Part shown: piece by piece, positions 3,797-57,185 of the stretch
How the letters are laid out: each line of letters opens with the position of its first letter
How positions within the stretch are numbered: the first letter of the stretch is position 1
Assembly: GCA_964386385.1 (NCBI GenBank)
Contig: CAYLRN010000001.1
Coordinates: forward strand, 172,706-236,705
Reading direction: 5' to 3'
Source: an uncultured Lentisphaeraceae bacterium
GTDB taxonomy: Bacteria; Verrucomicrobiota; Kiritimatiellia; RFP12; UBA1067
DNA: 64,000 bases
Notes under the pieces: model-generated
Databases searched by the model: none
The model's input: only the letters and a program-made list of their open reading frames with translations
What the model was told of the DNA's origin: nothing
Made by a program: the position numbers and the translations under genes

Positions 3797-6700
3797 TCAG
3801 CGGAGGATCAGCAGCGTTCCGACGGCGGTGACGACGGAGATGCGGCCGTTCTCGAAGACGAGCGCGGAGTTCGGCGCAGCGCCAGAGACGGAACACGCAA
3901 GGTCCGCCGCGTCTGGCTCGTCGCCGGAGTACGCGAAGAGCGGGAATTTGGGCGGCAGCTTCACCGGACGGTCTGCCATCTGCACGACCGCGCCCTTCTC
4001 GGACTTGAACTTCGCAAGCGGGACGGGAGCGGACTGGCTGAAGCTCGCGCGCAGGACGCCGCCGCTCTGCAGCCACAGTTCGTCCAGCGCCTCCGGCGTC
4101 GCAGCCACCATGTCGAAGACGCCGCCGGCCGCGACGCCGAGCGTTCCGCGCACGGAACCGGCCACCGCCAGGCGCTGCCCGGCGGCCAGCGCGAAGGGCC
4201 GGTTCGTCGTCGTCGGCAGCACGAGGCTCGCGCCCGCCGCCACAGTGACGTTCGTCGCGGCGAGGCCGCACGCGCCCGAATCGCTCGCATGGGGGAACTG
4301 CGAGGGCGTCAGGATGCCGTACTTCGCAACCCAGGCGTCGGTCAGAGCCTTTACGGCCGCGTCGTCGATGAAGGAATCGTAGAGGCGCACCGCGGCGATC
4401 TCCCCCTTGTAGTTGAAGTCGCAGTTGCCGCTGCCGACAAGAACGCGCATTGCCTCGCGCGGCGTTCCGCCGGATCCGGCCGCCAAGAGGCGCATATGCG
4501 TGAAAACGCCGTCCACGACGATGCGCATGAGGCCGGTGTCAGTGTCGAAGGAGCAGACGGCGCAGTGAGGCTGGCCGTCGGCGAGGTCCCAGACGCGGCT
4601 GACAGTGGACTGGTCGCCGCGCGTAGACACGTTCTTTCCGCCGTAGCCGGCCATGACGCGGTTGCCCTCGCCCCAGAGACCCAGTCCCCAGTCCGCCCGG
4701 TTGCTGGTGGGAAGTTCCGCGCCGACCATAACTGACGACGCGAAGAAGTTGCGGTTCATGGTCACGGAATCAGGCATGTTTCCGTTCGTCGACGTGCGGA
4801 ATACGACCGCAGCCGTCCAGGCGACCTTGCCGGAGGCTGGCGAATCGCCGGCGGGGATGCCGAGGGAGGTGTTGTTTCCGTTGAAATAGACGGAGTTGTG
4901 TCCGTTGATCGCGCCCTTGCGCAGAACGGGTCCCTTCCAGGTGGAGGCGTAGGACGTGGCCGACAGGTCGCTTGTTCCCGTGATGCGCGTGACGTTCGCC
5001 TTGTTCGCCGTGCGCGTTCCATCCGTCGAAAGCCATTCCGTCACCTCCGCACCGTCGGCGACGTCGACGATCGAATCGGCGTCCCACGCGGCGGCGCCGT
5101 CGTCCGGAATTGCCGCGGGGACTTTCTCCCCCATCGGCGGAACGTCGCCCTGCGCCGAATCGTCATCCAGCTCTCCAACCGCGTAGACGCTCGCAGGCGC
5201 GCCGTACTTCCCGGCGAGTTCCACGCCGACGGCGGCCTTTTCGCTCCATGTCAGAGTCCTGCCGGGATAGAAGCGGATCTCGGCCAGCGCGCCCGTGAAC
5301 GCGAACTTGTACGGGGCGTCGGCGTCGGCAATGTTCTGGACGCCGAAGTAGATGTCCGCCGCGTTGCGCGGGCTGCGCGTCGTCTCGTCGAGGTCGACGG
5401 CCCTCTCGACGGTCTCGCCGTCGACGGAGAGCGTGAGCGTCCCGTCGCCGGCCATGGCGTAGATGGCAACGTGCGGCCGGCCGTCGGCGTAGCTGCGAGC
5501 CTTCGTGTAGACGCTGTAGTCCTTGTTGAGCTTGGCGACGCCGAAGCCGGCGCCGACATGTCCGTTCGCGCCGAAGACAAGCCCCCAGTCGTTCACGCAG
5601 CCCGGCTGTTCGCGTCCGAGAATGCCGGTCTCCATATACCACGAGTTGTCCCAGCCCAGGCCGGGCGTCGCAGTCTTGAAGACGACTGCCAGCGTCCAGT
5701 TGGTCTGCCCTGCGAGCGGATTTTCCTCCGCCACGACCTTGAGCGCGGAGTGGTCGAACACGACGCCCGGCCGGCCGTTGAACTCGTCGAGAGAGGCCTT
5801 GGGAACTGTCGTCGGATTCGACGAAAACGTCGGAACCACGGCAGTGCGCGAGGCAGTGGAGTCCGGCCATGCGACGACGTCGTCCCCGTCGGCAAGAGCC
5901 GCGACGGCGTCCTCCGCGCGCCAGGCTACGCATCCGGCGGCAGTCGCGGAAGAGGAGGAGGACATTGGCGCGCCCAGTATCTTGACCGTCCCCTCGTCGA
6001 CGGCGAGTTCGCCCGTGAACGCCGAGGCGTCCCCGAGGACGAGCGTGCCGGCCCCCTTCTTCGTGAGGACGCCGCATCCCTTGAGCGGGGCGCGCATGGC
6101 GAATCGGCGGTCCCGCGTGTCGACTGTCGCAGAGGCTCCGGAAGGGACGATCGTGTCGAGTTCGCTGAACGAGTCGGCCGTAGCCGCGAGCGTTCCGCCG
6201 CGCAGTTCGACGCGATACCAGGAGTCGGTCGTCGCGCCCGAGTTCCACCGCCCTTCAGTGGCCGAGAATCCGCGCGAACCGATTTCGAAGAGGCCGCCGG
6301 AGAGCGTGAACGTGCAGTAGCTGTTCGTGACGGGAATCTGGCGGTCGGCCCCGAACGTCGTCGCTCCGCCCAGCGCGACGCGCGGGACGCGCACGGCGCC
6401 GCCCGACTGGCGGTATGCGGCGGAGGGGGAGTTCACGACCGTTCCGTTGTCGCGCCTTGAGAACGCGAGGATCAGTCCGTCGTCGCCCGGCTGGCTGGAA
6501 GAGGTTTCGTCGACGGCAAGCGTTCCGCCCTTCACCGTGAAGTCGTGGGAGACGAGCTGGTGGCCGCCGCGGTCGCCCATCCAGAGCGTCCCCAGATTCG
6601 CCGTGCCGCCGTCCAGGACGAACTTCGGGTTGGCGTACCAGGTAGAAGAGCCGTTGCCCATGTAGAACGTCGTAGCGTCGAAGCGTCCGCCCGTCAGTTC

Positions 6701-7552
6701 GTAGAGCGAGTCGTACTTGCTGAAGCCGACCTGCGCCAGGACCGCCTTGACGTGTCCGCCGGACTGGCGGAACTCGCCGGAGTCGACGACGAAGACGCCG
6801 TTTGTGAAGACCGCGCCGTCGCCAAAGACCACCTTCGGCGCGCCCGGCTGCGTGAGAAGCAGATAGCTGCCTCCGCCACCCATGTTGACGACGACGCCGG
6901 GGAAGACGTCCTTCCAGTCCGCCTTGTCGGTGAACGTCAGTTCGAGCCGGGCGCTTCCGCTCCAGCGAAAGTCCTGCGCCCAGACGCCAGGTTTCGCCAG
7001 GCGCGCGACATTGTGTCCGCCGGACGCGAAGCGGTAGCCGAGCGTCCCCGCATAGGCCGGCGGCGCATTGTGGCAGGCCAGCACGGCGTTGGAGACTACG
7101 AGTTCGGAATTGCCGCCGATGGCGGCGTTGAAAAAGACCTTTGCCAGTCCGAAATCCCATGTCTGGTCCGCGGCCGTCGCCAGGCGGACGCTGAACGTGA
7201 GGTTGGAATCCGCCCCTGCGGCATGGCGGGCCGTCAGGCCGTCCGCGCCCAGGGCCAGCGTCGTCGTCGCGCCGGCCGCCGCGTTCGTGCCGACGACGAC
7301 GGCGCCGTTGGGGACGTTCGTGAGGACGAGGCCGCCTAACGCGAGGCTGGCGGAATTCGTCAGGGCAGCCATTCCCGGCCGCGCCGCGAAGTCGACCCAC
7401 GCGACGTCGTCCTCCCCCGGCAGGACACCGCCCGCCCAGTTCGCCGCGACGGCCATGTCCGCCGATTCCGCGCCGGAGAACCTTACGACCTCGCCCCGCG
7501 CCATCGCGAGAGCAAGCCCCATTGCGACTGCACAATACGCCGCCTTGACCAT
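3797..7552 (-). CDS. Giant secreted protein of about 1252 aa. It has multiple LamG/concanavalin-A-like lectin domains and an autotransporter-associated beta-strand (PATR) repeat.
   Basis: Start ATG at 7552 is preceded by AAGGAGG. Signal peptide is MVKAAYCAVAMGLALAMA. GTLVLGDASAFTGELAVDEGTVKILG matches the PATR repeat. LamG-like signatures include TLTLSVDGETVERAV and GEIAAVRLYDSFIDDAAV. The ORF-track start at 7945 is an upstream read-through. Confidence 0.75.
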   Translation of the reverse strand: MVKAAYCAVAMGLALAMARGEVVRFSGAESADMAVAANWAGGVLPGEDDVAWVDFAARPGMAALTNSASLALGGLVLTNVPNGAVVVGTNAAAGATTTLALGADGLTARHAAGADSNLTFSVRLATAADQTWDFGLAKVFFNAAIGGNSELVVSNAVLACHNAPPAYAGTLGYRFASGGHNVARLAKPGVWAQDFRWSGSARLELTFTDKADWKDVFPGVVVNMGGGGSYLLLTQPGAPKVVFGDGAVFTNGVFVVDSGEFRQSGGHVKAVLAQVGFSKYDSLYELTGGRFDATTFYMGNGSSTWYANPKFVLDGGTANLGTLWMGDRGGHQLVSHDFTVKGGTLAVDETSSSQPGDDGLILAFSRRDNGTVVNSPSAAYRQSGGAVRVPRVALGGATTFGADRQIPVTNSYCTFTLSGGLFEIGSRGFSATEGRWNSGATTDSWYRVELRGGTLAATADSFSELDTIVPSGASATVDTRDRRFAMRAPLKGCGVLTKKGAGTLVLGDASAFTGELAVDEGTVKILGAPMSSSSSATAAGCVAWRAEDAVAALADGDDVVAWPDSTASRTAVVPTFSSNPTTVPKASLDEFNGRPGVVFDHSALKVVAEENPLAGQTNWTLAVVFKTATPGLGWDNSWYMETGILGREQPGCVNDWGLVFGANGHVGAGFGVAKLNKDYSVYTKARSYADGRPHVAIYAMAGDGTLTLSVDGETVERAVDLDETTRSPRNAADIYFGVQNIADADAPYKFAFTGALAEIRFYPGRTLTWSEKAAVGVELAGKYGAPASVYAVGELDDDSAQGDVPPMGEKVPAAIPDDGAAAWDADSIVDVADGAEVTEWLSTDGTRTANKANVTRITGTSDLSATSYASTWKGPVLRKGAINGHNSVYFNGNNTSLGIPAGDSPASGKVAWTAAVVFRTSTNGNMPDSVTMNRNFFASSVMVGAELPTSNRADWGLGLWGEGNRVMAGYGGKNVSTRGDQSTVSRVWDLADGQPHCAVCSFDTDTGLMRIVVDGVFTHMRLLAAGSGGTPREAMRVLVGSGNCDFNYKGEIAAVRLYDSFIDDAAVKALTDAWVAKYGILTPSQFPHASDSGACGLAATNVTVAAGASLVLPTTTNRPFALAAGQRLAVAGSVRGTLGVAAGGVFDMVAATPEALDELWLQSGGVLRASFSQSAPVPLAKFKSEKGAVVQMADRPVKLPPKFPLFAYSGDEPDAADLACSVSGAAPNSALVFENGRISVVTAVGTLLILR

Positions 7553-7625: not shown

Positions 7626-7653
7626 ATTATATCCGTTTTTTTTTTCTCGTCAA
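7626..7653 (-). promoter_or_regulatory. Sigma70-like promoter TTGACG-16 nt-TATAAT for the giant LamG gene. The spacer consists mostly of a homopolymeric A10 (T10 on the plus strand) tract.
   Basis: Minus strand reads cgcaaTTGACGagaaaaaaaaaacggaTATAATgc. The promoter lies between the activase stop (7678) and the LamG gene start (7552). Confidence 0.5.
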
Positions 7654-7677: not shown

Positions 7678-8526
7678 TTATGGGAGTCGGACGGCGACTT
7701 TCTTCGGCGGCATGACGTCGGGGAGACCGAGGGCCAGGTACTTCGCCCGCGCGTAGTCGTTGTACTCCAGCTCCACGCGAGCGTCCTTTGCGATGCCCAT
7801 CCCGTCGAGGTCGCGATGGCGCGCGGCAAGGTCTGCGCCGTCCGTCAGATTGGGAACGACGAGCAGGCGGACTTCCATTTTCGCCTTCGCCGCGACGAGC
7901 CGGGCGAGATTGCGCAGAATGAGCTCGTTTGATACGCCTGTGCATCGGCGATGGAGATCAGCGCCGTGCGCCTTGTAGTCGGGAAGCCACATGTCCGTCA
8001 CTGGAAGCATCGCCTCGATTGCGGCTGGCGGCGCGTGAAGCGACGTGTCCAGGCAGGTCCGCAATCCCGCCGCGCGGAAGCGCGCGAAGAGCTCCGCCGC
8101 CCATTCCCAGAAGAAGAGCGGTTCGCCGCCGGAGAGAGTGACGCCGCCGCCCGTCCGCTCGTAGAACGGCCTGTCTTCAAGCGCCAGCTCGACGATGCGC
8201 TCCATTGTCATCGGCTTCCCGTAGAACTTCAGCGCACCGGTCGGACACGTCGCCTCGTCGTTCGTGCAGACCTTGTGTCGAACGCACTTGTGCCGGAAGC
8301 GCGCCAACTGCGGCTTCGGGTCGATCGACTCCGGGTTGTGGCACCACAGGCATTTCAGCGGACACCCCTTGACGAAGAACGTCGTCCTCATCCCCGGGCC
8401 GTCCCATATTGCCATCCGCTTCACGTCGAGAAGCAGCGGCGTACGCAGCGGACGGCCGGCAGCGAACGCCGGCGCCAGAGCACATGACGCAACGCCTGCC
8501 AGGAATCCCTTGCGAGTCGTCTTCAT
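7678..8526 (-). CDS. Glycyl-radical-enzyme activating protein (radical SAM, PflA-like), 283 aa. It has an N-terminal Tat/Sec-like hydrophobic extension.
   Basis: CPLKCLWCHNPESI (CX3CX2C), WDGPGMRTTFFVKGC, and a ferredoxin-like Cys cluster CVRHKVCTNDEATC. Start ATG at 8526 overlaps the upstream GRE stop (ATGA). The N-terminus reads MKTTRKGFLAGVASCALAPAFAAG. Confidence 0.8.
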   Translation of the reverse strand: MKTTRKGFLAGVASCALAPAFAAGRPLRTPLLLDVKRMAIWDGPGMRTTFFVKGCPLKCLWCHNPESIDPKPQLARFRHKCVRHKVCTNDEATCPTGALKFYGKPMTMERIVELALEDRPFYERTGGGVTLSGGEPLFFWEWAAELFARFRAAGLRTCLDTSLHAPPAAIEAMLPVTDMWLPDYKAHGADLHRRCTGVSNELILRNLARLVAAKAKMEVRLLVVPNLTDGADLAARHRDLDGMGIAKDARVELEYNDYARAKYLALGLPDVMPPKKVAVRLP

Positions 8527-11393
8527 TGCGCGATTCCCTCCGCGCGCCGGATGTAGGCCTCCTGCTCCTTTCGCGGCATGTCGTTCCAGCGGACGTTCCA
8601 GCCGCACACGCGCACCTGCAGGTTCTCGTATTTTTCGGGCCGCCGCTGGGCGTCGCGCAGCGTCTCCACGTCCACGACGTTGAAATGGATCGCGCATCCG
8701 CCGTTCGCGAAATACGTCTGCACCAGCGCCTTCATCGCGTCAAGCCCCTTATCGCCTCCCACGGCGTACGGGAGAAGCATGACGTCGAGCGGGAAGTCGC
8801 CCGGCAGGTCGCGGGCGTCGAGGTGGGCGACGGATAGCAGAAGCGCCGTAACGCCCTCCGTGTCGGCGCCCATCGTGGGGGAGACGTTCTTGCTCATCTC
8901 CTCGCCGGCGCGGCGTCCGTCCGGCGTCGCGCCCGTGGCGCGGCCAAGGTCGATGAACTGCTTCGCGCAGTGTCCGCTCGCCTCGAACGCGCCGTTGCGC
9001 GAATTCGGGACGCCGTTCAGGCATTTAGCGTAGGCCTTGACGATTTCGTCGGCGAGATGGTTCGCCTCCGCGTCGTTGTTTCCCCACTTGCGCTTCGAGC
9101 GCTGCATCCTGAGGCGGAGGTCTTCACGCCCTTCCCAGTTCTTCGCCATCAGCGCGCCGAGTTCGGCAAGCGACATCTCACGGCGCTCGTAGACGATTTC
9201 CTCCACGGCGAGCAGCGCGTCGACCGCGGTGCCGAGGCCGGTCTGGAGGACGGAGGAGAAGTTGCCGCGCCGAGTGCCGTCGACGAATGCGTCCTTCCCG
9301 GTCATGACGCTGTATTCCGTGGCAAGCGAGAAGAGAAGGGACGGGTTGACTTCGGCAAGAGTCCTCTCCCACTCGAACGCGAGATTGCGGCTCTCGACGG
9401 TCGTCTCCGCAAGCCGCGCCAGGTAGGCCCGCCTGAACGCCGCGAAATCGGCGGCGGCGAAAGTCCCGTCCTTCGCGCGATCGAGCAGTTCCTCGACGAC
9501 CTTCAGCAGATTGACGTGGGAGATGCCGGTGCCGTTGTAGCCGTCCCTGAGGCCGAACTCGTAGCAGCCGGCGACGACCATCGCGCGGCAGTCCTCGTCA
9601 GTGCAGTCGCGTATCTTGCCCTTCAGCACGCGCGCCATCGGCTCTTCGCCGCAGAAGACGAGCGAACGGTGTCGGCGCGCCATGTCGAGGGCCTTACGCC
9701 AGACCCAGTCGGGGGTGGAGGCCGCCATCTTGAGCTGGACTTTCGGCGTCGGCAGGGCGAGTTCGTCGTGCACTTCAAGGAGAATGCGCGAGACCTCGTT
9801 GTACGCGCTCGTGCCGTCGGCGTTCGTGCCGCCGAAATAGACGGGCTGCCCCCAGTAGTTGTCGATCGACCCCCACTGCCACCAGAAGTGGCGGAGCTGT
9901 TCGCGGAACTCCGCCTCGGTCGTCCGCCCCGCCGCGATGTCTGCGCGGTAGTAGGGCGTAAGGAGGCGGTCGAGGTTGCCGAGGGAGCGGACCTGGAAGC
10001 TGTCGAAGTTCTCGCTCATCACCCAGTCGAGATAGATGAAGAGCAGGACGTCATAGGCCGTCCGCGGCGCGCCCGCGCGCAGGCGGCGCAGGGAATCGCG
10101 CTCCTTCTCGAGGCGGGAGACGCGCCGCGCATGAACCGCGCCGGGCGGGTCCGCCGCCTCGCTCCGCAGGGCAGCCAGACGACGCTCCGACTGGACGACG
10201 AGGCGGTCCAGATGGCGAAGGACGGCGTCTGCGGCCATGAGACGGCTTTCGTAGTAGGCGTTTCCGTCCTTCCAGTTCGCCAGCAGACGTTCCCGGAGGC
10301 CGGGGAAGCCGAGCGGCAGAATAGCGTCCCAGTCGGGGACGGAATGGTCGTAGTCCTTCCACATGTTCCAGCGTCCGGCCTTGCGCCCGGCATGGATCTT
10401 CGCCGGCACGTCCGGACACGTCCGGGCGTCCACCTCCCCGCTGCGCTGTCCCATGATGGAATTGAGAGGATGCCCGAACCTGTGCTTCGTCCAAAGCGCG
10501 TAGGCGGGAAACCAGTCAAGGGGCGAGACGTCTATCGCCGCGCGGTCGCAGCAGAACGCGAAGAGCTTAGCCTTTACGACGCTCCACGGCATTCTGCCCT
10601 TGCTCTCCTCCGCAAGCCTTGAGAGCGCCCCGCGCATCTCCTCGCGCTCAAGGCCGGTGGCGGGGTCTGCGACAGGGGTCCGCCACTTGAAGCGAAGGTA
10701 GTCCGCCTCGTTCGCGAACGGCGCGATCGTCCGTTCCTCGTACGGGGTCAGGACGACGTTGCGCAGACGTATCGCCACCCGTCCCTGCGGATAGGGCTGC
10801 GTCTGGAAGCCGATGCGTCCCGCGCGCGGAACTGTCACGAAGCAGCGGCTCACCTCCACTCCGTCCCACGAACACGCGACATCTCCCTCGACGCTGCGGA
10901 CGGCGAGGCGATGCCAGGCGCCGGGCGTCCGTCGCGCCGCTACGGCGCGGGGGATGCGATGGTAGCCGACTCCCGACATCGGACCCGACTGCGGCGTGGC
11001 GCCGACCATCAGCCCCGGCCATCCCCACAGGTCGCCGATGTCCGTCGTCTTCAACTGGAATTCAAGACCCGACGCCTGGTCGCCGTCGCCGACAAGAACG
11101 GCCAGCCCTCCGTCGCCGAACGAATCGTCGGCGTACTGTATTTCGGCCGTGAGCTTGAAATCGCGCCAGCGTTCCCTCGTCGTCAGGACGAGCGGCCTGG
11201 CGCCGTTCATGGTCAGGACGCCGTCCGCCAGGCTGAACGTCTCCGCGACGTCGGCGGCGGACTTCGCCATCGGGCAGTCGAAGTCCGCCAGCGTCCGCCC
11301 GGCGAACAGATCCACCGGCGGAAGCGCGGTCGGCGCGGCAAGTCCCGTCCATGCGGCAAGGACCCCGGCGGCGATGGCCATTTCAAGTTTCAT
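8523..11393 (-). CDS. Fusion protein of 956 aa: signal peptide + DUF1080 (3-keto-disaccharide-hydrolase-like/LamG-like) module + glycyl-radical-enzyme (PFL-family) fold.
   Basis: RBS AAGGAGG precedes the ATG at 11393. N-terminus is MKLEMAIAAGVLAAWTGLAAP. DUF1080 signature ...DFKLTAEIQYADD...GRIGFQTQPYPQGRVAIRLRNVVL. C-terminus QVRVCGWNVRWNDMPRKEQEAYIRRAEGIAQ parallels the PFL glycine-radical motif RVSGYAVRFNSLTKEQQ. AGCYEFG is the candidate thiyl-Cys loop. Confidence 0.75.
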   Translation of the reverse strand: MKLEMAIAAGVLAAWTGLAAPTALPPVDLFAGRTLADFDCPMAKSAADVAETFSLADGVLTMNGARPLVLTTRERWRDFKLTAEIQYADDSFGDGGLAVLVGDGDQASGLEFQLKTTDIGDLWGWPGLMVGATPQSGPMSGVGYHRIPRAVAARRTPGAWHRLAVRSVEGDVACSWDGVEVSRCFVTVPRAGRIGFQTQPYPQGRVAIRLRNVVLTPYEERTIAPFANEADYLRFKWRTPVADPATGLEREEMRGALSRLAEESKGRMPWSVVKAKLFAFCCDRAAIDVSPLDWFPAYALWTKHRFGHPLNSIMGQRSGEVDARTCPDVPAKIHAGRKAGRWNMWKDYDHSVPDWDAILPLGFPGLRERLLANWKDGNAYYESRLMAADAVLRHLDRLVVQSERRLAALRSEAADPPGAVHARRVSRLEKERDSLRRLRAGAPRTAYDVLLFIYLDWVMSENFDSFQVRSLGNLDRLLTPYYRADIAAGRTTEAEFREQLRHFWWQWGSIDNYWGQPVYFGGTNADGTSAYNEVSRILLEVHDELALPTPKVQLKMAASTPDWVWRKALDMARRHRSLVFCGEEPMARVLKGKIRDCTDEDCRAMVVAGCYEFGLRDGYNGTGISHVNLLKVVEELLDRAKDGTFAAADFAAFRRAYLARLAETTVESRNLAFEWERTLAEVNPSLLFSLATEYSVMTGKDAFVDGTRRGNFSSVLQTGLGTAVDALLAVEEIVYERREMSLAELGALMAKNWEGREDLRLRMQRSKRKWGNNDAEANHLADEIVKAYAKCLNGVPNSRNGAFEASGHCAKQFIDLGRATGATPDGRRAGEEMSKNVSPTMGADTEGVTALLLSVAHLDARDLPGDFPLDVMLLPYAVGGDKGLDAMKALVQTYFANGGCAIHFNVVDVETLRDAQRRPEKYENLQVRVCGWNVRWNDMPRKEQEAYIRRAEGIAQ

Positions 11394-11435: not shown

Positions 11436-14400
11436 TCAGAAAAGGCGGTTGGAGAGGAAGCAGGAGGCGACGACGTGGCCCTTGACGATGAATGTCGAGA
11501 CGGGGATGCGCATTCCGGTGAACTGCTTGAACCCCTGCAGCCACTGCCCCTTCAGCTCCAGTTCGAGGTCGCCCGTCTCGGCGCGGAACGAGACGACGCA
11601 CAGTTCGCGCGGCGAATAGCGGATTCCGGTGCCCAGGGCCTTCGAGACGGCCTCCTTCGCGCACCAGAAGCGGATGATGGCGCTTGGGGTGTCGACGGCG
11701 TTCATCGCCAGATCCTGCTCCTCCGGAAGGAAGACGCCGCGCGCGAATTCGTCGGAAAGATACCGGTCGAAGGCCTCCACGTCCACGCCGACATGGGCGT
11801 TGACCGCGACGGCGGCCATGATGAAGCGGGCGGTGTGGGCGATGGAGAGGTCGAAGTCGACGTCGCTGCGCATGTGGTGCAGCCACGGGCCCGTGACACG
11901 GGGCTTTCCGCTGGGGTCGGAATAGACCTGCACGTCGGCGTCGCTCCAGCGCGCCTGGTAGTATCTGTCCAGAAAGCGGCGGACCGCCTCCTTGGCGGCG
12001 ACGCGGCCGAAGAGCCATTCCGTCCGGCGCGCCACGCTGCCCTTCTCCTCCATCTCCGCGAACTCGTGGCGTTCGGTGCGTCCGAGGACGATGTGCGAGA
12101 GGGTCTTGAGCCAGAGTTCCTCGTTGCGTTCGAACATGGGGTAGTCGACGTCGGTCAGGACGGCGGTGGCCATCGCAAGGCCGGTCGCGCCCATGCGCTC
12201 CTCCGGGAGGGTGTGCGTCAGGTAGGTGCGCGCCGGTTCGAGGAGCATCTTTCGGTATTCGTCCGGCACGCGCTCGGTGTATTCCTCGTAGCCGCGCAGT
12301 TCCATGACAAGGTTTCCGTTGCCGTCGGAGACGAATATGTCGGAGATGAGGGACGTGGGGGTGACGCCGGTGTTGCGCAGATAGCAGTGCAGGCGGCGTC
12401 CGACGGGATGGGCGAGCGAGTGGAGGGAGAGGCCGCGGATGCGGAACGCATATGAAATCGCCCCGTGGAAGCGCTCGTGGCTGCGCCAGAGCTGGAAGCC
12501 GTCCGTGATCGCGGCCATGAGCTGCGGGTTGAGCACCCAGACCGGGACGGTCGTGTGGGACACCGCCCTGTCCGATTCTGGCACCTCAACTTCGTAGTCG
12601 AGCCCCGCCTCGCTCCATCGGTCCGCGCGGCGGATGCACTGCAGAAGCGAACCGGAGAAGAGCATGTCGGGATAGATGTCGCTCGTCTCCCAGTGGACGT
12701 CCCTCGGCGTAGTGCCGTGCTCCGGCGGCGTGAACGCCTCCGGCGGAAGGGGACCTTCGGAAAGGAGGAACGTCCCCTCCATCGCAGGCCACGTCCAGGC
12801 GGAACCGGGCGTGTCCTCGCGCACCTGGACGCGCACGGCGACGCGCGCGGAGGCGGAAGCCGCGACGCGCTCGGCCCGGACGAAGAGGCGGAGGCGGCCG
12901 TTCCTGAATGCGGCCATGCGCCGGCGCTGCAGGTCGTTCACCGCGACGACGTGGAGGCCCGGCGCCAGCTGCTGGGCGAGCTCTGCCATGATCTCCGCCG
13001 CGCCGACGAGCGTCAGCGCCGTAAACCCGCGAAGCGGCTCAAGCCCGGAGTCGGCGTGGTCGGGATGCGAGAGCTGCGACGTCCCGAGGGCGAAGTCGGC
13101 GAGGATCGGCTCCGCCTTGAGGTCGAACGTCTTCACCATCTCGATCGATATGCCCTGCTGGTGGGAGACGACGTCCATGTCTGAAATTAGCGGACACACG
13201 GCGCCGAAGCCGAACTGCTGTTCGCGGCGCCGCGCCTGGGCGGCGATGACGGCCGCGCGCACCGCGGCCCGGCTGCGGCGGTCCGACGCGCCGCCCATGG
13301 AGGGCGCAAGCGCGGAGACGGCCTGCGGCGGCGGGACGTCCACCGTCAGGGCGAGGCAGGGGAACTCGCGCGAAAGCGGCATCTCCGCCTCCATCCTGAC
13401 GTTGAGCGAGAGGGGCGACGAGAAGTCCAGAAGCCGGCATCTGCGCTGGCGGAAGAGAAGCGAGGGGTCGACGGCGGCGCCAAGGGCGGCGAGCTGGCCT
13501 ACGACGTGCATCAGCTGGACGAGGCCCACGCGGTGGATGGAGTCCGCCGCCATCACGACGCGCTCCTCTCCGCGCAGGACCTCGTCGGCAAGGCCGCAGC
13601 ACGTCCCGCGCGGGCCGACCTCCAGGAAGACGCGATAGCCGTCGGCGTACATTCTGCGAATCGTGTCCGCGAACATGACGGGCCGCACCCATTCCTCCGC
13701 CGCCTCGTCGCGCGCCTTGCGGACGCGGGGGTGGAGCGGTTCGGCGCGGCCGCACGAATAGACGGGGAACTGCGGCTTTTCGTCTATCCAGTTGGACGCG
13801 AACTTGCGCAGGAGCGGAAGCACCCCACGGCAGCCCGGCGTGTTGAACGGCCTGTCCACGGAAAGGCGGCGGACGCGCGCCCCGGCGGCGGAAAGGCGCT
13901 TCACGACGTCGGCGGCGCATTCCGGCGCGGCGGCGATTGTCATGTGGCGCGGGGAGAGGCGATACGCCACGCCGACCTTGTCAGGCGGGAACTCGCCCAA
14001 CGCGCGTTCCGTTTCGCCGGGGCTTGCAGAGACGACGGAGGCGAGGACGCACTTCGGAAGCCCCGAATGCCCCACCGCCGTGTTCACCACCTTGTACGTC
14101 TCCTGCAGGAATTTGAGCCGGTGCTTGCGCTCGAACTTCCCGAACATCCCGCTTGCGGCGAGGGCGCTCAAATCGCCTCCGGAAAAGCCCGTCGCCCCTT
14201 CCGGCACGATTCCGAGCGCGCGGAAGAGGCGCGTCAGCGCCATGTTGGCGGAATACGTGGAGACGACGGCCTCGGCGTAGCCGCCGGCCGCGAAGACGTC
14301 CGCGTCCCCGCGGTAGTACGGCGCCGGCGGGAATACGAACGACGACGGCTGGAAGGGGCCTGCGCCCTTCAGCGCGGCCTCGAGCTCGTCGAAGGGAAGA

Positions 14401-14819
14401 CGGCACTCGCGGAAGCGCACGGTGACGTCGCGAAGCATGTCGGGATAGAACGACATTGCGCCGGGATAGATGAACGCCAGCTTCCCGTCCGCGCCCTCGC
14501 CGAGGACGTGCCTGGAGAAGAAGTACGTCCCCGACTTGTCGCGCAGACGCTCCGTCTTCGCGTCGGCGATCCGCGCCGCGGCGGAGACGAGGCGGCCGCG
14601 CAGTTCCGGGACGTCGGAGACGACGAGCGCCAGAACCGCGGCCTTCTCGCCGTCAGCGAACCGGCGGGCGCACGTGTACGCGACGTCGCGCAGCTCCACG
14701 CCCGTGATCTGGTCGATGAACGACACAAGGCCGTTCACCTCGGACACAAGCCCATCCCTGTCCGCCGCGCCGAGCAGGACAAGTTCGCTTCCAAACCATT
14801 CGCTCAGGTCCGCGCTCAT
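11436..14819 (-). CDS. Multidomain PKS/FAS-like protein of 1127 aa: KS-AT-type linker + acyltransferase + dehydratase (hot-dog) + Sfp-type 4'-phosphopantetheinyl transferase. No carrier-protein domain was seen.
   Basis: AT: LAFIYPGAMSFYPDM, GFSGGDLSALAASGMF, FLEVGPRGT. DH: LSHPDHADSGLEPL...GAAEIMAE. PPTase: SGKPRVTG...FDLSIAHT, GVDVE, FWCAKEAVSKALGTG. The start overlaps the KS-like stop (ATGA). Confidence 0.7.
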   Translation of the reverse strand: MSADLSEWFGSELVLLGAADRDGLVSEVNGLVSFIDQITGVELRDVAYTCARRFADGEKAAVLALVVSDVPELRGRLVSAAARIADAKTERLRDKSGTYFFSRHVLGEGADGKLAFIYPGAMSFYPDMLRDVTVRFRECRLPFDELEAALKGAGPFQPSSFVFPPAPYYRGDADVFAAGGYAEAVVSTYSANMALTRLFRALGIVPEGATGFSGGDLSALAASGMFGKFERKHRLKFLQETYKVVNTAVGHSGLPKCVLASVVSASPGETERALGEFPPDKVGVAYRLSPRHMTIAAAPECAADVVKRLSAAGARVRRLSVDRPFNTPGCRGVLPLLRKFASNWIDEKPQFPVYSCGRAEPLHPRVRKARDEAAEEWVRPVMFADTIRRMYADGYRVFLEVGPRGTCCGLADEVLRGEERVVMAADSIHRVGLVQLMHVVGQLAALGAAVDPSLLFRQRRCRLLDFSSPLSLNVRMEAEMPLSREFPCLALTVDVPPPQAVSALAPSMGGASDRRSRAAVRAAVIAAQARRREQQFGFGAVCPLISDMDVVSHQQGISIEMVKTFDLKAEPILADFALGTSQLSHPDHADSGLEPLRGFTALTLVGAAEIMAELAQQLAPGLHVVAVNDLQRRRMAAFRNGRLRLFVRAERVAASASARVAVRVQVREDTPGSAWTWPAMEGTFLLSEGPLPPEAFTPPEHGTTPRDVHWETSDIYPDMLFSGSLLQCIRRADRWSEAGLDYEVEVPESDRAVSHTTVPVWVLNPQLMAAITDGFQLWRSHERFHGAISYAFRIRGLSLHSLAHPVGRRLHCYLRNTGVTPTSLISDIFVSDGNGNLVMELRGYEEYTERVPDEYRKMLLEPARTYLTHTLPEERMGATGLAMATAVLTDVDYPMFERNEELWLKTLSHIVLGRTERHEFAEMEEKGSVARRTEWLFGRVAAKEAVRRFLDRYYQARWSDADVQVYSDPSGKPRVTGPWLHHMRSDVDFDLSIAHTARFIMAAVAVNAHVGVDVEAFDRYLSDEFARGVFLPEEQDLAMNAVDTPSAIIRFWCAKEAVSKALGTGIRYSPRELCVVSFRAETGDLELELKGQWLQGFKQFTGMRIPVSTFIVKGHVVASCFLSNRLF

Positions 14820-34229: not shown

Positions 34230-36443
34230 TCAAACCGCCGGAGCCTTGATCCATTCCTTCATCTCGGCCGACAGCGGGGAGACCGACTTGACGACCGCCT
34301 TGGAAACCTTGCCTTCGGCGTCGGGAAGCTCGATCTCGTCGCCGGCCTTTCTGCCGACCATGTTCTGCGCAAGCCGCGTATTGCAGGAGATGACGCCGAG
34401 GTCGAGATAGTTGTCCCATTCGCCGAGGACGGTGTACGTCCTCTCCTCGCCGGAAGCGGTCACGATGACAACCGTCGTGCCGGGGCAGACGGTCTCGGAG
34501 ACGACGTCCGCGAAGTCGACGGCCTTGACCTCGTTGAGCTGCTTCTGGAGTTCGTCCTGCTTCTGGTGGAGGACGCGCTCCTCGTCCTTCGCGTACTGGT
34601 ATTCCGCGTTTTCGCTCAAGTCGCCGTAGCTCTTCGCGAACTGGATGCGCTTCGTGTTCTCCGGGATGTCCTTCGTGACGAGCTTTTCGTATTCCGCCTG
34701 GCGTTCGGCGTAGGAGCGGAGCGACGTGATGCGTTCGACCGTCTTCGCCGCGGTCTTCTTGATCTGGCGGGCCGCGAGTTCGGGGACGATCTTCGTCATG
34801 CGCACGACGATCATGTGGTGCGTGGACGGGTCCCACGCGATCGACGCCTGGAAGCGCTCGAAGAAGAGGGCCTGGTCGGCCGGCTTCAGGCGCTTGAACA
34901 TGTCCTCAAGCCACTTCTGGTCCGCGAAAAGGCGGCGGATCGTGTTCTGCATCCGCAGCGTCTCGCCCGTCTGCCTGCCCTCGCCAAGCGCGATGGCGTG
35001 GGTCAGGATGACGACGAGCGGCGGCAGGGACTCCCATTCCACGAAGTCGTTGTACCTGCCGATTACGTACGTCACGAGGGGGGCGGGGGCGTGCGGGGAC
35101 TTCAGGAGGTCGGCGGCGGCGTGCTCGCAGACGGAATCCTTCTTGAACGTGTCCAGGGTGGCGCAGAGCAGGGAATACGTCATCACCGCCAGATTGTCGA
35201 AGAGCTTCTGCTTGCGCCCGGCGCGCTCCTCCTCCGTGGAACCCATGGAGAGGAACGTCACGAAGCGCACCATGTCGCGGGCGGGCAGAACGCGCGCCGC
35301 GTCGAGATAGCGGTCTTCCGTCCACATGTAGTTGCGCGCCTTGGCGATGGTCTCCGGGTCGAAGCCAAGCCCGTCAAGGCAGAACGCGATGCGCAGATAG
35401 AGCGAATCGTCCACGCCGCGGACGCCCTTGAGCGCATAGCGGAGACGCTCGGCGATGCAGGCCTTCTGCTCGTCGCCGAGCTTAGCGAAATGCGCCTTGG
35501 CGGACTGGAGCTCGGCGACGGACGCGAAGATGGACTTGGGGTCGCACTCCTTCGCGAACGCCGAGAACCAGGTGTCGCCGTACGTCTCCTCCGAGGCCTT
35601 GAGCACGATCGGCTCGGCCCGGCGCGTGGGAATCGCGACGCACTTGTTCGTGCGCAGCTCGGCGCGCGCCTTCTCCCAGAAGGATTTCCACTTCGCCGCC
35701 TTGTCGCCCCGGTTCCTGCCGTTGTCCGGAAGGAGGCGGGCGAAGCCGTACTGGTTCACCAGCTCCTCGAGGCGCGAGACGGGCATGTTGCCGAAGCTCT
35801 CCAGCATGGCGACGACGAATTCGCCCGGCTTCTCCTTCATCTGCGCCTTGATGCGGTCGGGGTCGCCCTTCAGCATCAGGAGTATGTGGCCGTCGGGCGC
35901 GATGGAAAGCGTCTCGCAGGCGGCGTCGTACGTGAACTGGTGTCCGGGGCGGGTGGGGAAGTCCACGCTCACGCGACGGTAGAAGTCGTCGATCCTCCTG
36001 ACCTGGCCAAGCCCCCAGGCGCGGCTGAGGACGTAGGCCCCCGGGCGGAAGGAGACAAGACGCTCCAGGCGCTTGACAGGCTCGTTGAGGTCGGGCCGGA
36101 CGTCGAAGCCCACCGCGTCAATGAACGAAAGAAGCGTCCTGTCCTTCGTCGTGCGCTTCAGGGCGTCCCTGACCCCGGCGCCGCTCAGGCAGGAGTTAAG
36201 CAGCCTGCCGCAGCCGGACACGGCCTTGAACGCGCCGTCGAAGTCGCCGGCCTCCCCCATCGCCGCAAGCAGCGCGGCGGCGTTCGCCTCCCCCTTGCTG
36301 GGAGGCAGACTGGAAATCAACTTGACGACCTCATCCACCGGACACGGCGTGACCGAAAGCTTCGTGCCAATCTCGGCTTCAATCTCCTCAACGGACTTCT
36401 TATCCATAACTGCCTTTTTCTGGTTGAAAAACGTAAGGGGCAT
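34230..36443 (-). CDS. Large protein of about 737 aa with a C-terminal GreA/GreB-type transcript-cleavage-factor domain and a long uncharacterised N-terminal region. The start is ambiguous between 36443 and 36407.
   Basis: C-terminus ...FAKSYGDLSENAEYQYAKDEERVLHQKQDELQKQLNEVKAVDF...GTTVVIVTASGEERTYTVLGEWD... is GreA-like. The ORF-track start at 36632 is probably read-through. Confidence 0.65.
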   Translation of the reverse strand: MPLTFFNQKKAVMDKKSVEEIEAEIGTKLSVTPCPVDEVVKLISSLPPSKGEANAAALLAAMGEAGDFDGAFKAVSGCGRLLNSCLSGAGVRDALKRTTKDRTLLSFIDAVGFDVRPDLNEPVKRLERLVSFRPGAYVLSRAWGLGQVRRIDDFYRRVSVDFPTRPGHQFTYDAACETLSIAPDGHILLMLKGDPDRIKAQMKEKPGEFVVAMLESFGNMPVSRLEELVNQYGFARLLPDNGRNRGDKAAKWKSFWEKARAELRTNKCVAIPTRRAEPIVLKASEETYGDTWFSAFAKECDPKSIFASVAELQSAKAHFAKLGDEQKACIAERLRYALKGVRGVDDSLYLRIAFCLDGLGFDPETIAKARNYMWTEDRYLDAARVLPARDMVRFVTFLSMGSTEEERAGRKQKLFDNLAVMTYSLLCATLDTFKKDSVCEHAAADLLKSPHAPAPLVTYVIGRYNDFVEWESLPPLVVILTHAIALGEGRQTGETLRMQNTIRRLFADQKWLEDMFKRLKPADQALFFERFQASIAWDPSTHHMIVVRMTKIVPELAARQIKKTAAKTVERITSLRSYAERQAEYEKLVTKDIPENTKRIQFAKSYGDLSENAEYQYAKDEERVLHQKQDELQKQLNEVKAVDFADVVSETVCPGTTVVIVTASGEERTYTVLGEWDNYLDLGVISCNTRLAQNMVGRKAGDEIELPDAEGKVSKAVVKSVSPLSAEMKEWIKAPAV

Positions 36444-36615
36444 TTTATCAAATCCACTCCGCTTGTGCAACCTTGCAACGTCTTGGAGGCTTCCCGTTTT
36501 TTCACGGCCGGCAAGTCCATCTCGCGGCAACTCCCCGTTTCCGGCTTTCAGGGAGAGACAACCGCCCGCGGATTCAATGAAGCCCGTGGGTGATGGCGGC
36601 GCGGAAAATGAAGAG

Positions 36616-36660
36616 GGGCAGAACCACCGCATTTATATGAATGCGGTGGTTCTGCCGTTC
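36616..36660. terminator. Perfect 16-17 bp inverted repeat GGCAGAACCACCGCATT-tatatg-AATGCGGTGGTTCTGCC. It is a candidate terminator for the convergent/upstream LamG gene or a regulatory hairpin for the GreA-like gene.
   Basis: The palindrome is read directly from the sequence. It lies about 115 nt downstream of the LamG gene stop (36773) and about 170 nt upstream of the GreA-like start. TATGAATGCGG is directly repeated nearby. Confidence 0.35.
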
Positions 36661-36772: not shown

Positions 36773-39700
36773 TCACCTGAACTGGATGAGCGTTCCGAGA
36801 TGGAGCCAGCGCACCTCGTCGAGCACCGAGAAGCCGACGTCGCCGACGACCGAGAGGTCGTGCACGGCGTTCCCGTTCGCGACGCCATCGCGAAGGCCGT
36901 CCGAACCGGCGTCGAGCGGCCACCAGCCGAGCAGCCCAGACTCCGTGCCTTCCGGAGGACGTCCGCAGTGGCGGGCGACCTCGCCGGGCGTCAGCGCCCG
37001 GTCCCAGAGCGTGACCTGCGAGAGCGTTCCCTTGACCGAGAAGCCGCCTACGCAGTGTCCGCCGATGCGTAGGCTGTACCAGTCCGTGGCGGGATTGACG
37101 AAATTCTCCGCGCCGTCGGCGGAATCCACCAGCCGCCCGTCAAGGTAGAGCCGCGCCTCTGACCGGCCCAGGTCGTGCGTGAAGGCCAGCTGGTGCCAGC
37201 GGCCGGAATTGCGGACGGCGGAGGCGTCGAAGCCCAGCTCAAGCATGTTGTTGTCGAAGTCGCGCGTCTGGACACTGATCTTGAAGAACGAACTGTCCGT
37301 CCTGCTTGCGTTCGCGAAGCAGCAGAACCCCGGCGTCCTGTTGCCCAAGGCGCCCTTCGAGACGATTGCGCCGTAAAGTTCGTCGTCCAGCCCGCGCCCG
37401 CCGACGTCCAGGTCGCGAAACCACACGGTGAACGAGAAGTTCGTGAGCGACGGCCCCCACCCGGCGTTCAGGCAGGACGGCCCGTACGATCCCGTGAGAT
37501 GCGGAACGCCGGCCGAGCCGCCGGGGCCTGCAAGGAACGCCGCGCCCTCGGCGGAGGGATAAAACGCGCCGACGACGAGGTCGTACATCCCCGCCACGCC
37601 GTCGGCCTTGCGTTCGCATGGGATGAACTTGCGCGCGAGCGTCCCGTCCTGCCAGATCGCCGCGGCGTGGAGGCGTCCCCATCCAGACGCTTTCGGCCCA
37701 GCCTTCAGCAGGCTTATCTGCGCCGTGGACGTCCCCGTCATGGGATAGTCCAGCGCGGCAGACTTCGTTCCGTCCACGTAGAACGCGCCGCCCCTCGCGT
37801 CGAGCGTCAGGCGGGCCCGCGTGCCTGAAACGGCCACCACGGGCGACGACGGGGCGTTCCACCCCAGTGCGTCCTCAAGGCCGGCGTCCATGCAGCGGCT
37901 CACCCAGCGCATGTTGTTCAGCGACGTGAAGGCCTCGAAGAAAAACGCCCCGGCGGGAACGTCCGCCTCCGCGCAGTCGCGCGCGCCGACGACATGGCGG
38001 TTCAGGGTGGCGCTGACGTTGTACGGCGTGAAGTCGACCGTCGCCGTCGTCCCGGGCGTCGCGTACACGCACGTCGCTATGGACTGCGCGCCCGTGGCGA
38101 CGACGTAGTCGAGGGCCGCGTATCCGTCGGGAAGTTCCGAAACGTCGAGGTACGCGCCGCGCTCGAACGCATCCGAACCGGCGGCGTTCACGTGGAACGC
38201 GCCCGTGACGCGGTCGTACAGGCCCGCGGCGCCGTCCGTGATGCGCTCGAACGGCGCGAGGTCGCGCACAAGGACGTCTCCCTCGTAGATCTTCCAGCCG
38301 TAGACGCGAAGCCCGTAGTACGTGAACGGCGTGAGCAGTCCGTTCGCCGCGCACGACCCGCAGAGGGCAAGGGAGTTCACGGAGTGCGTAGTCGTCTTCA
38401 CGGCGGCATGCGTCGACTGGACGCCGAACGAGACCGCTCCGGAGGCGGCGTCCACCTCGAACGCGCCGCGGGACGTGCGGTTCTGGACGTCCCAGCTGTA
38501 GATGTCCGCCCCCGACGCATACGATCTGTCCATCCAGAGGAACAGCTGGTTGTCCTGAAAGTCGTAGCCGCCGAAGTTAACAGTCATGCAAACGACGCCG
38601 TCCGGCTCCGCGCAGCCGAAGAATGACGCGCCTTTGACGCCGTTGACAGGCTTGCGGTTTGCGGGGCTGCCGACGAACTGGATGTCGCCCGCAATGCGCG
38701 TGGAGGGATTGGGGCAGTAGCCCAGGTCGAAGCACTGCGTGCCGGTGGACGCGACGTACTCGACCGGGCGCAGCGCGCCGGCGGGCGTGACGGTGAACTC
38801 CTTCGTGACGGCCCATCCCGCGCGCTCGCCAAGGCCGGTCACGGTCACGGTGCCGGCACCAGGCGCGGCGTTGTCCGCATACGACAGTTCGTAGTCCGTC
38901 CCCTCCTCCAGCGGCAGTTCCGTGACGGGGTCGACTACGCGGGGCTTCGGACGGCACGGGTTCGCGCCGTCATACACCTGGTCCGGCACGGGGCGGACGA
39001 CGAACGAAGCGTTCTCTCCTAGGAAGCGGGCGCGGTCAAGCGTCGCGTTGCGGTCTCTCTCGTATGGCGTGAGGGCGCGGTCGTAGACCCGGATGGCGTG
39101 GACGCGGACGTCGGCGCGCGGGTTAGAGAAGAACGCGAACTTCGCCCCCCAGTCCTCGGAGTACGAATCCATCGCGAAGTCTGAGAGGGCGATGGCCTCG
39201 CCGTCGCAGAAGAAGGCGCTTGTAGCGGTGTTCGTGCCGTAGGTGAGGGAAAAGACGTGGACCTCCGCCGTCGTCATGTCCTCCGGCTGCCAGTGCCATA
39301 TCCGCCTCTTGGACGCGCTTTCGGGGAAGAAGGCGTAGAAGCCGTTGTCCTTGTCCCTGCGATAGCCGAAGCTTCCGCGCGGAGTGTCGGCAACCGTCTG
39401 CAGGTTGTAGTAGTTGTCGGAGAACTTCCAGGCGACGTTCTGCATGACGACCTCGACCGTGAACGCCCCGGCGTCGGGTCCTGTCGACAGACCCGCCAGG
39501 GCCGCCATCTCCGTCGTGTCCACGCCGGCCGTCTTGTCCGGCTTCGCGAGCGAGAGAAAGGCGTTCGCCTCGGCGGCGACAAGACTCGTGGCGGGAATGG
39601 CGAGGTCGTTGCCGTTCCCTGAAAGGTCTTTCCAGACCGTCGGCGAATCGGAGTGCGAGCGGACGCCGTCCACAATCGCGTTGTCTATGCCGTCCCAGTG

Positions 39701-39847
39701 CGCGACGAGGCCGTTCGTGACGTAGGCGTCCGACCCGAACTCGCCGGCGGAAGCCGCCGTCCCCAACGCAAGCGCCGCCATGAACGCCGCCACCGGACGC
39801 GCCATGCGCCCACTTCCCATCGACCTCGACCGATCTATCGATTTCAT
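36773..39847 (-). CDS. Secreted LamG/concanavalin-A-like lectin-domain protein of 1024 aa. It is a paralogue-class of the 3797-7552 protein.
   Basis: Signal peptide ...MARPVAAFMAALALGTAASAG. LSGNGNDLAI and C-terminal ARLYLDGRLVDSADGA...GTLSQVTLWDRALTPGEVARH are LamG_3-type signatures. AAAGGAGA RBS precedes the ATG at 39847. Confidence 0.75.
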   Translation of the reverse strand: MKSIDRSRSMGSGRMARPVAAFMAALALGTAASAGEFGSDAYVTNGLVAHWDGIDNAIVDGVRSHSDSPTVWKDLSGNGNDLAIPATSLVAAEANAFLSLAKPDKTAGVDTTEMAALAGLSTGPDAGAFTVEVVMQNVAWKFSDNYYNLQTVADTPRGSFGYRRDKDNGFYAFFPESASKRRIWHWQPEDMTTAEVHVFSLTYGTNTATSAFFCDGEAIALSDFAMDSYSEDWGAKFAFFSNPRADVRVHAIRVYDRALTPYERDRNATLDRARFLGENASFVVRPVPDQVYDGANPCRPKPRVVDPVTELPLEEGTDYELSYADNAAPGAGTVTVTGLGERAGWAVTKEFTVTPAGALRPVEYVASTGTQCFDLGYCPNPSTRIAGDIQFVGSPANRKPVNGVKGASFFGCAEPDGVVCMTVNFGGYDFQDNQLFLWMDRSYASGADIYSWDVQNRTSRGAFEVDAASGAVSFGVQSTHAAVKTTTHSVNSLALCGSCAANGLLTPFTYYGLRVYGWKIYEGDVLVRDLAPFERITDGAAGLYDRVTGAFHVNAAGSDAFERGAYLDVSELPDGYAALDYVVATGAQSIATCVYATPGTTATVDFTPYNVSATLNRHVVGARDCAEADVPAGAFFFEAFTSLNNMRWVSRCMDAGLEDALGWNAPSSPVVAVSGTRARLTLDARGGAFYVDGTKSAALDYPMTGTSTAQISLLKAGPKASGWGRLHAAAIWQDGTLARKFIPCERKADGVAGMYDLVVGAFYPSAEGAAFLAGPGGSAGVPHLTGSYGPSCLNAGWGPSLTNFSFTVWFRDLDVGGRGLDDELYGAIVSKGALGNRTPGFCCFANASRTDSSFFKISVQTRDFDNNMLELGFDASAVRNSGRWHQLAFTHDLGRSEARLYLDGRLVDSADGAENFVNPATDWYSLRIGGHCVGGFSVKGTLSQVTLWDRALTPGEVARHCGRPPEGTESGLLGWWPLDAGSDGLRDGVANGNAVHDLSVVGDVGFSVLDEVRWLHLGTLIQFR

Positions 39848-39932
39848 CCGCGTCTCCTTTCAGCGTGGAGGTGAAAGCGCCCGCCGCGCGCGGCGCAGCG
39901 CAACCAAAGACAACATTCGATTATTGCGGTGA

Positions 39933-39958
39933 ATTATATGCTTTTTTTTTCCTGTCAA
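39933..39958 (-). promoter_or_regulatory. Sigma70-like promoter TTGACA-14 nt-TATAAT for the LamG gene. The spacer is dominated by an A9 (T9 on the plus strand) homopolymer.
   Basis: Minus strand reads cgccaTTGACAggaaaaaaaaagcaTATAATtcacc. It has the same architecture as the 7626-7653 promoter. Confidence 0.5.
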
Positions 39959-40039
39959 TGGCGCTGGCCGCTTTTATTTCGTCCGCCGGCGAAATAGGCA
40001 GCGGATTTCCGCGCCCATGTTGACGCGGGGAAAACGGCG

Positions 40040-40058
40040 TGGTAGAATGGTCTGCATG
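40040..40058 (+). promoter_or_regulatory. Extended -10 TGgTAGAAT located 7 nt upstream of the ATG at 40056 (leaderless-type start).
   Basis: Sequence reads cgTGgTAGAATggtctgcATGaatcgg. No RBS is present. Confidence 0.4.
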
Positions 40059-57074: not shown

Positions 57075-57165
57075 GTCGGTCCTTTCATGTGCGATGTCGA
57101 TTCATATGCGATGCAGATGTGCCGCACATTCTACCACGTTTCGGCGCGGCATAGAATCCGCCGAA

Positions 57166-57185
57166 TGTGCTATAATGGCGCCATG
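57166..57185 (+). promoter_or_regulatory. Extended -10 TGcTATAAT located 6 nt upstream of the ATG at 57183 (leaderless-type start).
   Basis: Sequence reads gaaTGTGcTATAATggcgccATGagacag. The same layout occurs at the paralogue (40040-40058). Confidence 0.4.

Follow-up and report, generated by a model that had tools for sequence, protein, structure and literature searches.

The gene for a large predicted secreted LamG protein is preceded by a promoter whose spacer is largely an A homopolymer, and this promoter is probably a contingency locus, at which slippage in the A tract would change the spacing of the promoter elements and thereby transcription. Sequence comparison among related strains supports slippage-driven promoter variation well, both here and at a second locus in the window (the whole 64-kb stretch of DNA that was analysed). 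The sites appear to carry the signature of contingency promoters because four features coincide, namely an improbable tract, its placement within the spacer, polymorphism of its length, and the retention of a pure and unstable tract over long divergence. From these features we infer that tract length controls transcription and that switching is reversible and adaptive.

Two promoters with homopolymer spacers

The features of the two loci are as follows, all on the minus strand.

39953..39958, minus strand: -35 hexamer TTGACA of the LamG gene, read from the sequence
39933..39938, minus strand: -10 hexamer TATAAT of the LamG gene, read from the sequence
39939..39952, minus strand: 14-nt spacer GGAAAAAAAAAGCA (plus strand, TGC-T9-CC)
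39942..39950, minus strand: A9 homopolymer, the mutable part of the spacer (T9 on the plus strand)
39848..39926, minus strand: predicted 5' leader of ~79 nt, its start site inferred from the -10 hexamer
~39877-39901, minus strand: small GC hairpin in the LamG leader that holds GCGCGGCGGG
39854-39859, minus strand: AAGGAG ribosome-binding site of the LamG gene
36773..39847, minus strand: LamG gene, encoding a 1024-aa predicted secreted/surface protein with a C-terminal Laminin_G_3 domain (ConA-like lectin)
36617..36656, minus strand: 17-bp stem-loop after the LamG stop codon, a likely terminator
7653..7626, minus strand: sister promoter TTGACG-AGA10CGGA-TATAAT with a 16-nt spacer (T10 at 7636-7645 on the plus strand)
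3797..7552, minus strand: PATR gene, encoding a 1251-aa predicted secreted protein with a PATR (autotransporter-type beta-strand) repeat

The site at 39933-39958 had been described as TTGACA and TATAAT hexamers separated by 14 nt, nine of which form a homopolymer, and on re-reading these coordinates are exact. The plus strand reads ATTATA at 39933-39938 and TGTCAA at 39953-39958, and 9 of the 14 bases between TTGACA and TATAAT belong to the A run. The hexamers (39958..39933) match the sigma-70 consensus at 12 of 12 positions, and the end of the -10 hexamer lies 85 nt from the ATG at 39847. The spacer nevertheless falls outside the 17 +/- 1 nt of the sigma-70 rule, both in this promoter (14 nt) and in its orthologues (19-21 nt), and inspection found no alternative hexamers with more than 1-2 matches that would give the window promoter a spacer of 16-18 nt. 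The upstream neighbour of the gene is divergent, so read-through cannot supply transcripts, and the likely terminator after the stop codon would make the LamG gene monocistronic.

The same promoter design had been proposed for a second gene of the window, and it is indeed found there. The sister promoter lies upstream of the ATG at 7552 of the PATR gene, scores 11 of 12 against the sigma-70 hexamers, and has a 16-nt spacer, within 17 +/- 1 nt. At the two sites, the promoter is 67-85 nt upstream of the gene. In the window (65.5% GC) there are two homopolymers of at least 7 bases, and these are exactly the two promoter tracts; for A or T runs of at least 9, 0.014 are expected as against the 2 observed. 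When both strands were scanned for -35/-10 pairs with spacers of 12-22, five sites in the window reached at least 10/12, with the tract promoters in ranks 1 and 2, while shuffled sequence gave ~0.3 sites per spacer class. An ordinary promoter (TTGACG-17-TAGAAT with a TG) is located at 40020-40048, 60 bp from the LamG site. A common core of the form ATTATAT...GTCAAT.GCG had also been suggested for the two tract promoters; ATATAAT and ATTGAC are common to both, and the full core is only loosely right.

Downstream of the promoters, the 10-mer GCGCGGCGGG is found in both leaders, ~40 nt from the -10 hexamer, and these are two of its three occurrences in the window. The leader of the LamG gene is well conserved among orthologues, and a CCGCC-N6-GGYGG hairpin is kept in the orthologue leaders. 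A conserved leader RNA element is not claimed, as the leaders fold like their shuffles (no extra stability, z +0.65 and +0.23), covariation in the hairpin is thin, and an Rfam search of the leader returned no family and one sub-threshold chance match.

The two genes had been taken for paralogues, a view that the protein comparisons contradict. The LamG protein carries Laminin_G_3 at residues 872-958 (E 3.4e-16), and a comparison with solved structures matches it via a LamG or pentraxin-type module only. In the 1251-aa PATR protein, the PATR repeat is the sole Pfam match, with no LamG domain, and the comparison with solved structures found no relatives. BLASTP between the two returned nothing (best E 2.4), and when the family profiles were compared, a LamG-type motif of ~80 residues matched with 65.6% probability (E 5.8e-5). 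Paralogy of the pair is rejected, and all that they have in common is a weak LamG-type module. Both have N-termini that look like signal peptides, and no further large protein of this predicted secreted LamG or PATR kind is encoded in the window. Among the remaining large open reading frames, most match enzyme or housekeeping families (among them a glycyl-radical enzyme, GH2, RecC, SAICAR synthetase and an acyltransferase/ACPS protein), and three have no family match. The dN/dS of the LamG gene against its orthologues is 0.26-0.27, and the values for both genes fall within 0.26-0.39; both are intact and under purifying selection.

Several neighbouring loci are of interest in their own right. 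Downstream of the LamG gene, 34230-36632 (minus strand) encodes a protein of ~725-800 aa with HTH_GRAD and, at its C-terminus, both the N- and the C-domain of GreA/GreB, which makes an extended GreA-like protein of unusual architecture; this gene is kept beside the LamG gene in L001 and L002, two contigs described below. A gene with AAA-ATPase_like and PDDEXK_9 domains is present in two diverged copies (40020-40058 and 57150-57185, both plus strand) with ~73-77% nucleotide identity in patches. The first copy has TG-G-TAGAAT followed after 7 nt by the ATG at 40056, and the second has TGCTATAAT followed after 6 nt by its ATG, so that both look like leaderless mRNAs from extended -10 promoters. 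The listed start of the first copy (40017) is 39 nt too early. Finally, 7678-11393 (minus strand) encodes a glycyl-radical enzyme (PFL-like plus Gly_radical, with an N-terminal 3-keto-disaccharide hydrolase domain) and a radical-SAM activase, a pair that sits between a 1127-aa acyltransferase/ACPS gene (11436-14819) and the PATR gene. In three related contigs (L028-L030), the PATR gene comes immediately after the acyltransferase gene, which marks an indel of ~3.8 kb beside the sister promoter.

Tract-length alleles among orthologues

Orthologous loci were collected from related uncultured Kiritimatiellae in public metagenomes, with alleles taken from consensus assemblies of short reads; for the distant homologues, the source is given as Kiritimatiellae bacterium. 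Both window proteins, from an NCBI contig of 328 kb, are singletons at 90% identity. The LamG protein occurs in just one further contig (L001), which matches the window at 100% identity over 6312 bp and is hence not independent, so the window strain counts as one sample.

Two lineages of the LamG gene are available for comparison. At 82% identity, L002 carries TTGACG-GGGGAG-A10-GTA-TATAAT, and at 80% identity, L003-012 carry TTGACG-GGAGAG-An-GTA-TACAAT. The latter are ten samples with an identical protein, of which seven have A10, one A11, one A12, and one A10 with an extra GA. Over ~3.54 kb they differ by three synonymous SNPs. Two upstream T9/T10 runs vary in length too, so such variation is common to long A/T runs in general and alone is no proof of adaptive switching. 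The TTGAC is kept in L002 and in L003-012 despite an adjoining indel of 4-5 nt. Relative to L002 and L003, the window lacks four non-tract bases beside the -35 hexamer plus one A, and the difference between LamG spacers of 14 and 19 nt is mostly this 4-nt non-tract indel. In all, the LamG-gene spacers seen measure 14 nt (window) and, among relatives, 19, 20, 21 and 21 nt, with no allele among those seen that places TATAAT or TACAAT at 16-18 nt. In L002 and L003, a poorer overlapping -10 hexamer (TATATA or TATACA, without the final T) would sit at 17 nt, which makes the promoter frame there ambiguous.

Orthologues of the PATR gene show the design more uniformly. Four diverged lineages of 78-81% identity (L028, L029, L030 and L162) carry TTGACG-AG-A10-YGGA-TATAAT, and L163, whose protein is that of L162, has A9 in place of the A10 of L162 and L030. 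At 65% identity, L151-159 carry TTGACA-GCGAG-An-TGGC-TATAAT. They come from nine samples of several studies, all with the same 1236-aa protein, and their tracts are A7, A8, A9 in five samples and A10 in two, for spacers of 16, 17, 18 (five) and 19 nt (two). Across 4.5 kb there are five SNP columns and no indel other than the tract, and five contigs that lack any SNP difference carry either A9 or A10. PATR-gene alleles thus cluster at spacers of 15-19 nt, around the optimum.

The design is present in all orthologues of at least 65% identity, and TTGAC, tract and TAYAAT are retained across lineages at dS 0.25-0.75. Tract lengths differ among samples with identical proteins in L151-159, in L162/L163 and in L003-012, and it is established that length polymorphism outpaces point mutation in these three separate lineages. 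The original prediction had named as evidence against itself a motif missing from relatives and a fixed tract length; orthologues carry the motif, and the lengths vary. Its further suggestion of a dedicated control element for this protein family does not hold, as the homologues of ~45% identity (L013-015, L160 and L161) have no tract, and one of them (L161) has the ordinary promoter TTGACA-18-TAAACT.

Other sequence features accompany the orthologous promoters. In L003-012, two consecutive T9 runs stand ~20-45 nt upstream of the -35 hexamer (L003 116-136), after a terminator-like hairpin CGTCCACG...CGTGGACG; these T9/T10 runs are in the position of an UP element and may act on this promoter as a second input of variable length. 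At 338-375 of L151, the predicted transcript opens with an 11-bp hairpin GCGCATTCC...GGAATGCGC followed by U6GU4, which is terminator-like (z -2.2). Lying just downstream of the variable promoter, this hairpin could be an attenuator or the terminator of an upstream gene for a 1926-aa protein. On the upstream side, the short-read contigs of the LamG orthologue (L003-012, and likewise the 5' ends of L001 and L002) all stop 226-264 nt before the gene; on the downstream side they stop exactly 244 nt past its stop codon, a constant break of the 80% lineage. In the window, the multi-copy AAA-ATPase gene lies where the upstream break occurs.

Two broader motif searches were made. A search of representative genomes, in a collection apparently without the source genome, with GA7-N(1-10)-TAYAAT-N(30-55)-GCGCGGYGGG gave 12 matches, all in unrelated taxa and none in Kiritimatiellae. 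A metagenome scan with TTGACR-N(0-6)-GA7-N(1-10)-TAYAAT-NCNYC found no tract cassette among the matches listed. Those matches include an abundant human-gut promoter, TTGACGGGGAGAAAAAAATAGCATACAATTCACC (TTGACGGGGAGA7TAGCATACAAT), in L032, L034, L035, L037 and at least about 40 more loci. It resembles the L003 promoter, with an A7 run, a 17-nt spacer and contigs of 59-65% GC, and it precedes a different gene. Among the matches listed it is invariant, and it is the same design without length variation.

Proposed switching and the alternatives

In the proposed mechanism, replication slippage would add or remove A residues in the spacer and so shift the distance and rotational phasing of TTGACA relative to TATAAT, which would alter how often transcription initiates. 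Expression of the two large predicted secreted proteins would then be heterogeneous in the population, in ON/OFF or graded fashion and independently for each gene. In the window strain, the PATR gene (A10, 16 nt) is predicted to be active, and the LamG gene (A9, 14 nt) to be silent or very weak, because a spacer of 14 nt is too short to be workable by 2-3 nt. That 14 nt represents an OFF state is plausible by analogy with the E. coli-type rule of 17 +/- 1 nt for sigma-70 spacing. This prediction is supported by the spacers of the ordinary promoters nearby (17 nt) and in L161 (18 nt), by the 15-19 nt of the PATR alleles, by the lack of a rescuing hexamer in the window and by the divergent upstream gene. 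Promoters close to the E. coli consensus are very rare in this genome, so that its spacing rules are poorly calibrated. Since all LamG alleles seen are off the optimum, either the gene is habitually OFF or low and drifts among non-permissive lengths, or the simple 17-nt rule does not describe its promoter and spacing is looser here than in E. coli.

An alternative possibility, which we regard as unlikely but worth serious attention, is that the A tract serves as a constant piece of the architecture of strong promoters, where a rigid, bent or AT-rich spacer would aid RNA polymerase or a nucleoid protein, so that promoters of 14-21 nt all work to some degree and the different lengths are tolerated noise. 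The LamG spacers (14 and 19-21 nt) would fit such a role, as they straddle the optimum and never reach it while gene and promoter elements are conserved; so would the A10 of the PATR gene in four diverged lineages and the variation of other long T runs. AT-rich spacers have, moreover, been reported as important for the sigma-66 promoters of chlamydiae, which belong to the same superphylum. However, so unstable a tract would stay pure over dS 0.4-0.7 only if purity itself were selected, and an interrupted AT-rich spacer would do the static job and be stable. The alleles of L151-159 fall at 16-19 nt, around the canonical optimum, and the homologues of 45% identity do without a tract; both observations argue against a static role.

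A rather improbable reading is that, in this Kiritimatiellae lineage, the A tract is recognised as a promoter element in its own right and does more than set the length, with TTGAC-TAYAAT promoters usable at 14-21 nt and their output tuned by non-canonical rules. Such recognition would explain how perfect hexamers and purifying selection on the LamG gene persist without any canonical spacer.

It is somewhat less probable still that the LamG promoter of the window is a decayed and locked-off relic, three steps from a working length, for which rescue by slippage is too rare. The promoter has lost 4 nt beside the -35 hexamer and has one A fewer than L002 and L003; a 17-nt spacer would need A12, and an allele of that type (17 nt) at the LamG gene occurs in no sample. 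On the other hand, the reading frame is intact over 3 kb with a dN/dS of 0.26 against orthologues, the hexamers are perfect at 12/12 and better than those of the orthologues, unlike those of a decaying promoter, and steps of +2 do occur in relatives (A10 to A12).

That there is no promoter here at all, the T9 on the plus strand being a terminator tail or UP-like element of the divergent AAA-ATPase gene or the hexamers a product of chance, is scarcely credible: a terminator-like hairpin does stand ahead of the T runs upstream of the L003 promoter and the divergent gene has the same intergenic region, but the 12/12 hexamer design is found again at a second gene and throughout the orthologues. 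As a terminator, the T9 is rejected because no plus-strand gene ends at the site, no GC-rich hairpin precedes 39942, and a terminator scan is silent there; as an UP element, it is rejected because it lies ~70 nt upstream of the divergent -35 hexamer at 40020, beyond UP-element range.

Significance and known systems

Kiritimatiellae are common in animal guts, almost uncultured, and rich in giant LamG/PATR surface proteins of unknown role. If the promoters switch, cells of one strain would display different sets of LamG and PATR proteins, which, if true, would be a form of bet-hedging against phage, host immunity or changing glycans. Bet-hedging by slippage is documented mainly in pathogens. The variation also flags the LamG and PATR proteins as likely targets of fluctuating selection, and since the allele series is already visible in public metagenomes, the idea can be tested directly on reads and metatranscriptomes that exist, with no need for cultures.

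Promoters of this general kind are known from several bacteria. In Helicobacter pylori, the poly-T "rheostat" of sabA is an A/T homopolymer beside or within the promoter that tunes transcription of an adhesin stepwise. The series of 16-19 nt alleles in L151-159 would fit such stepwise tuning, although the sabA tract lies beside the -35 hexamer whereas the tract described here fills the spacer.

A close likeness is found in the vlp genes of Mycoplasma hyorhinis (Citti and Wise, 1995), where, according to a later account, indels in a promoter poly(A) tract accompany ON/OFF switching (PMC10502178). In both cases, an A homopolymer is found in the promoters of separately transcribed genes, several surface-protein genes in the one and two for predicted surface proteins in the other. 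Each vlp gene switches independently, a behavior that is proposed for the two genes here. The vlp host is AT-rich and its vlp genes form one paralogous lipoprotein family, while the present genome is 65% GC and its two genes are unrelated save for a weak module; in a genome of such composition, the A tract is far more anomalous. Switching has been shown for vlp and is proposed for the present loci.

In the porA, fetA and opc genes of Neisseria, a homopolymer between the -35 and -10 hexamers sets their spacing and facing and thus transcription of outer-membrane proteins (van der Ende, 1995; Carson, 2000; PMC5320596). Promoter tract lengths differ among Neisseria strains, as tabulated in PMC5320596, just as they differ among samples here. 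The Neisseria tracts, however, are poly-G, poly-C or mixed T/G, occur in pathogens, and have had their graded expression measured, in contrast to the poly-A tract in uncultured gut Kiritimatiellae, for which an effect on expression is predicted. A high-GC gut commensal, Bifidobacterium breve, switches its pilus by homopolymer slippage (PMC9187656), but does so through an intragenic poly-G and translational frameshift rather than a promoter tract. Our literature search found no paper that links Kiritimatiellae to phase variation. The mechanism looks like an ordinary, textbook slippage switch, and what appears to be new is its occurrence in an abundant uncultured gut lineage.
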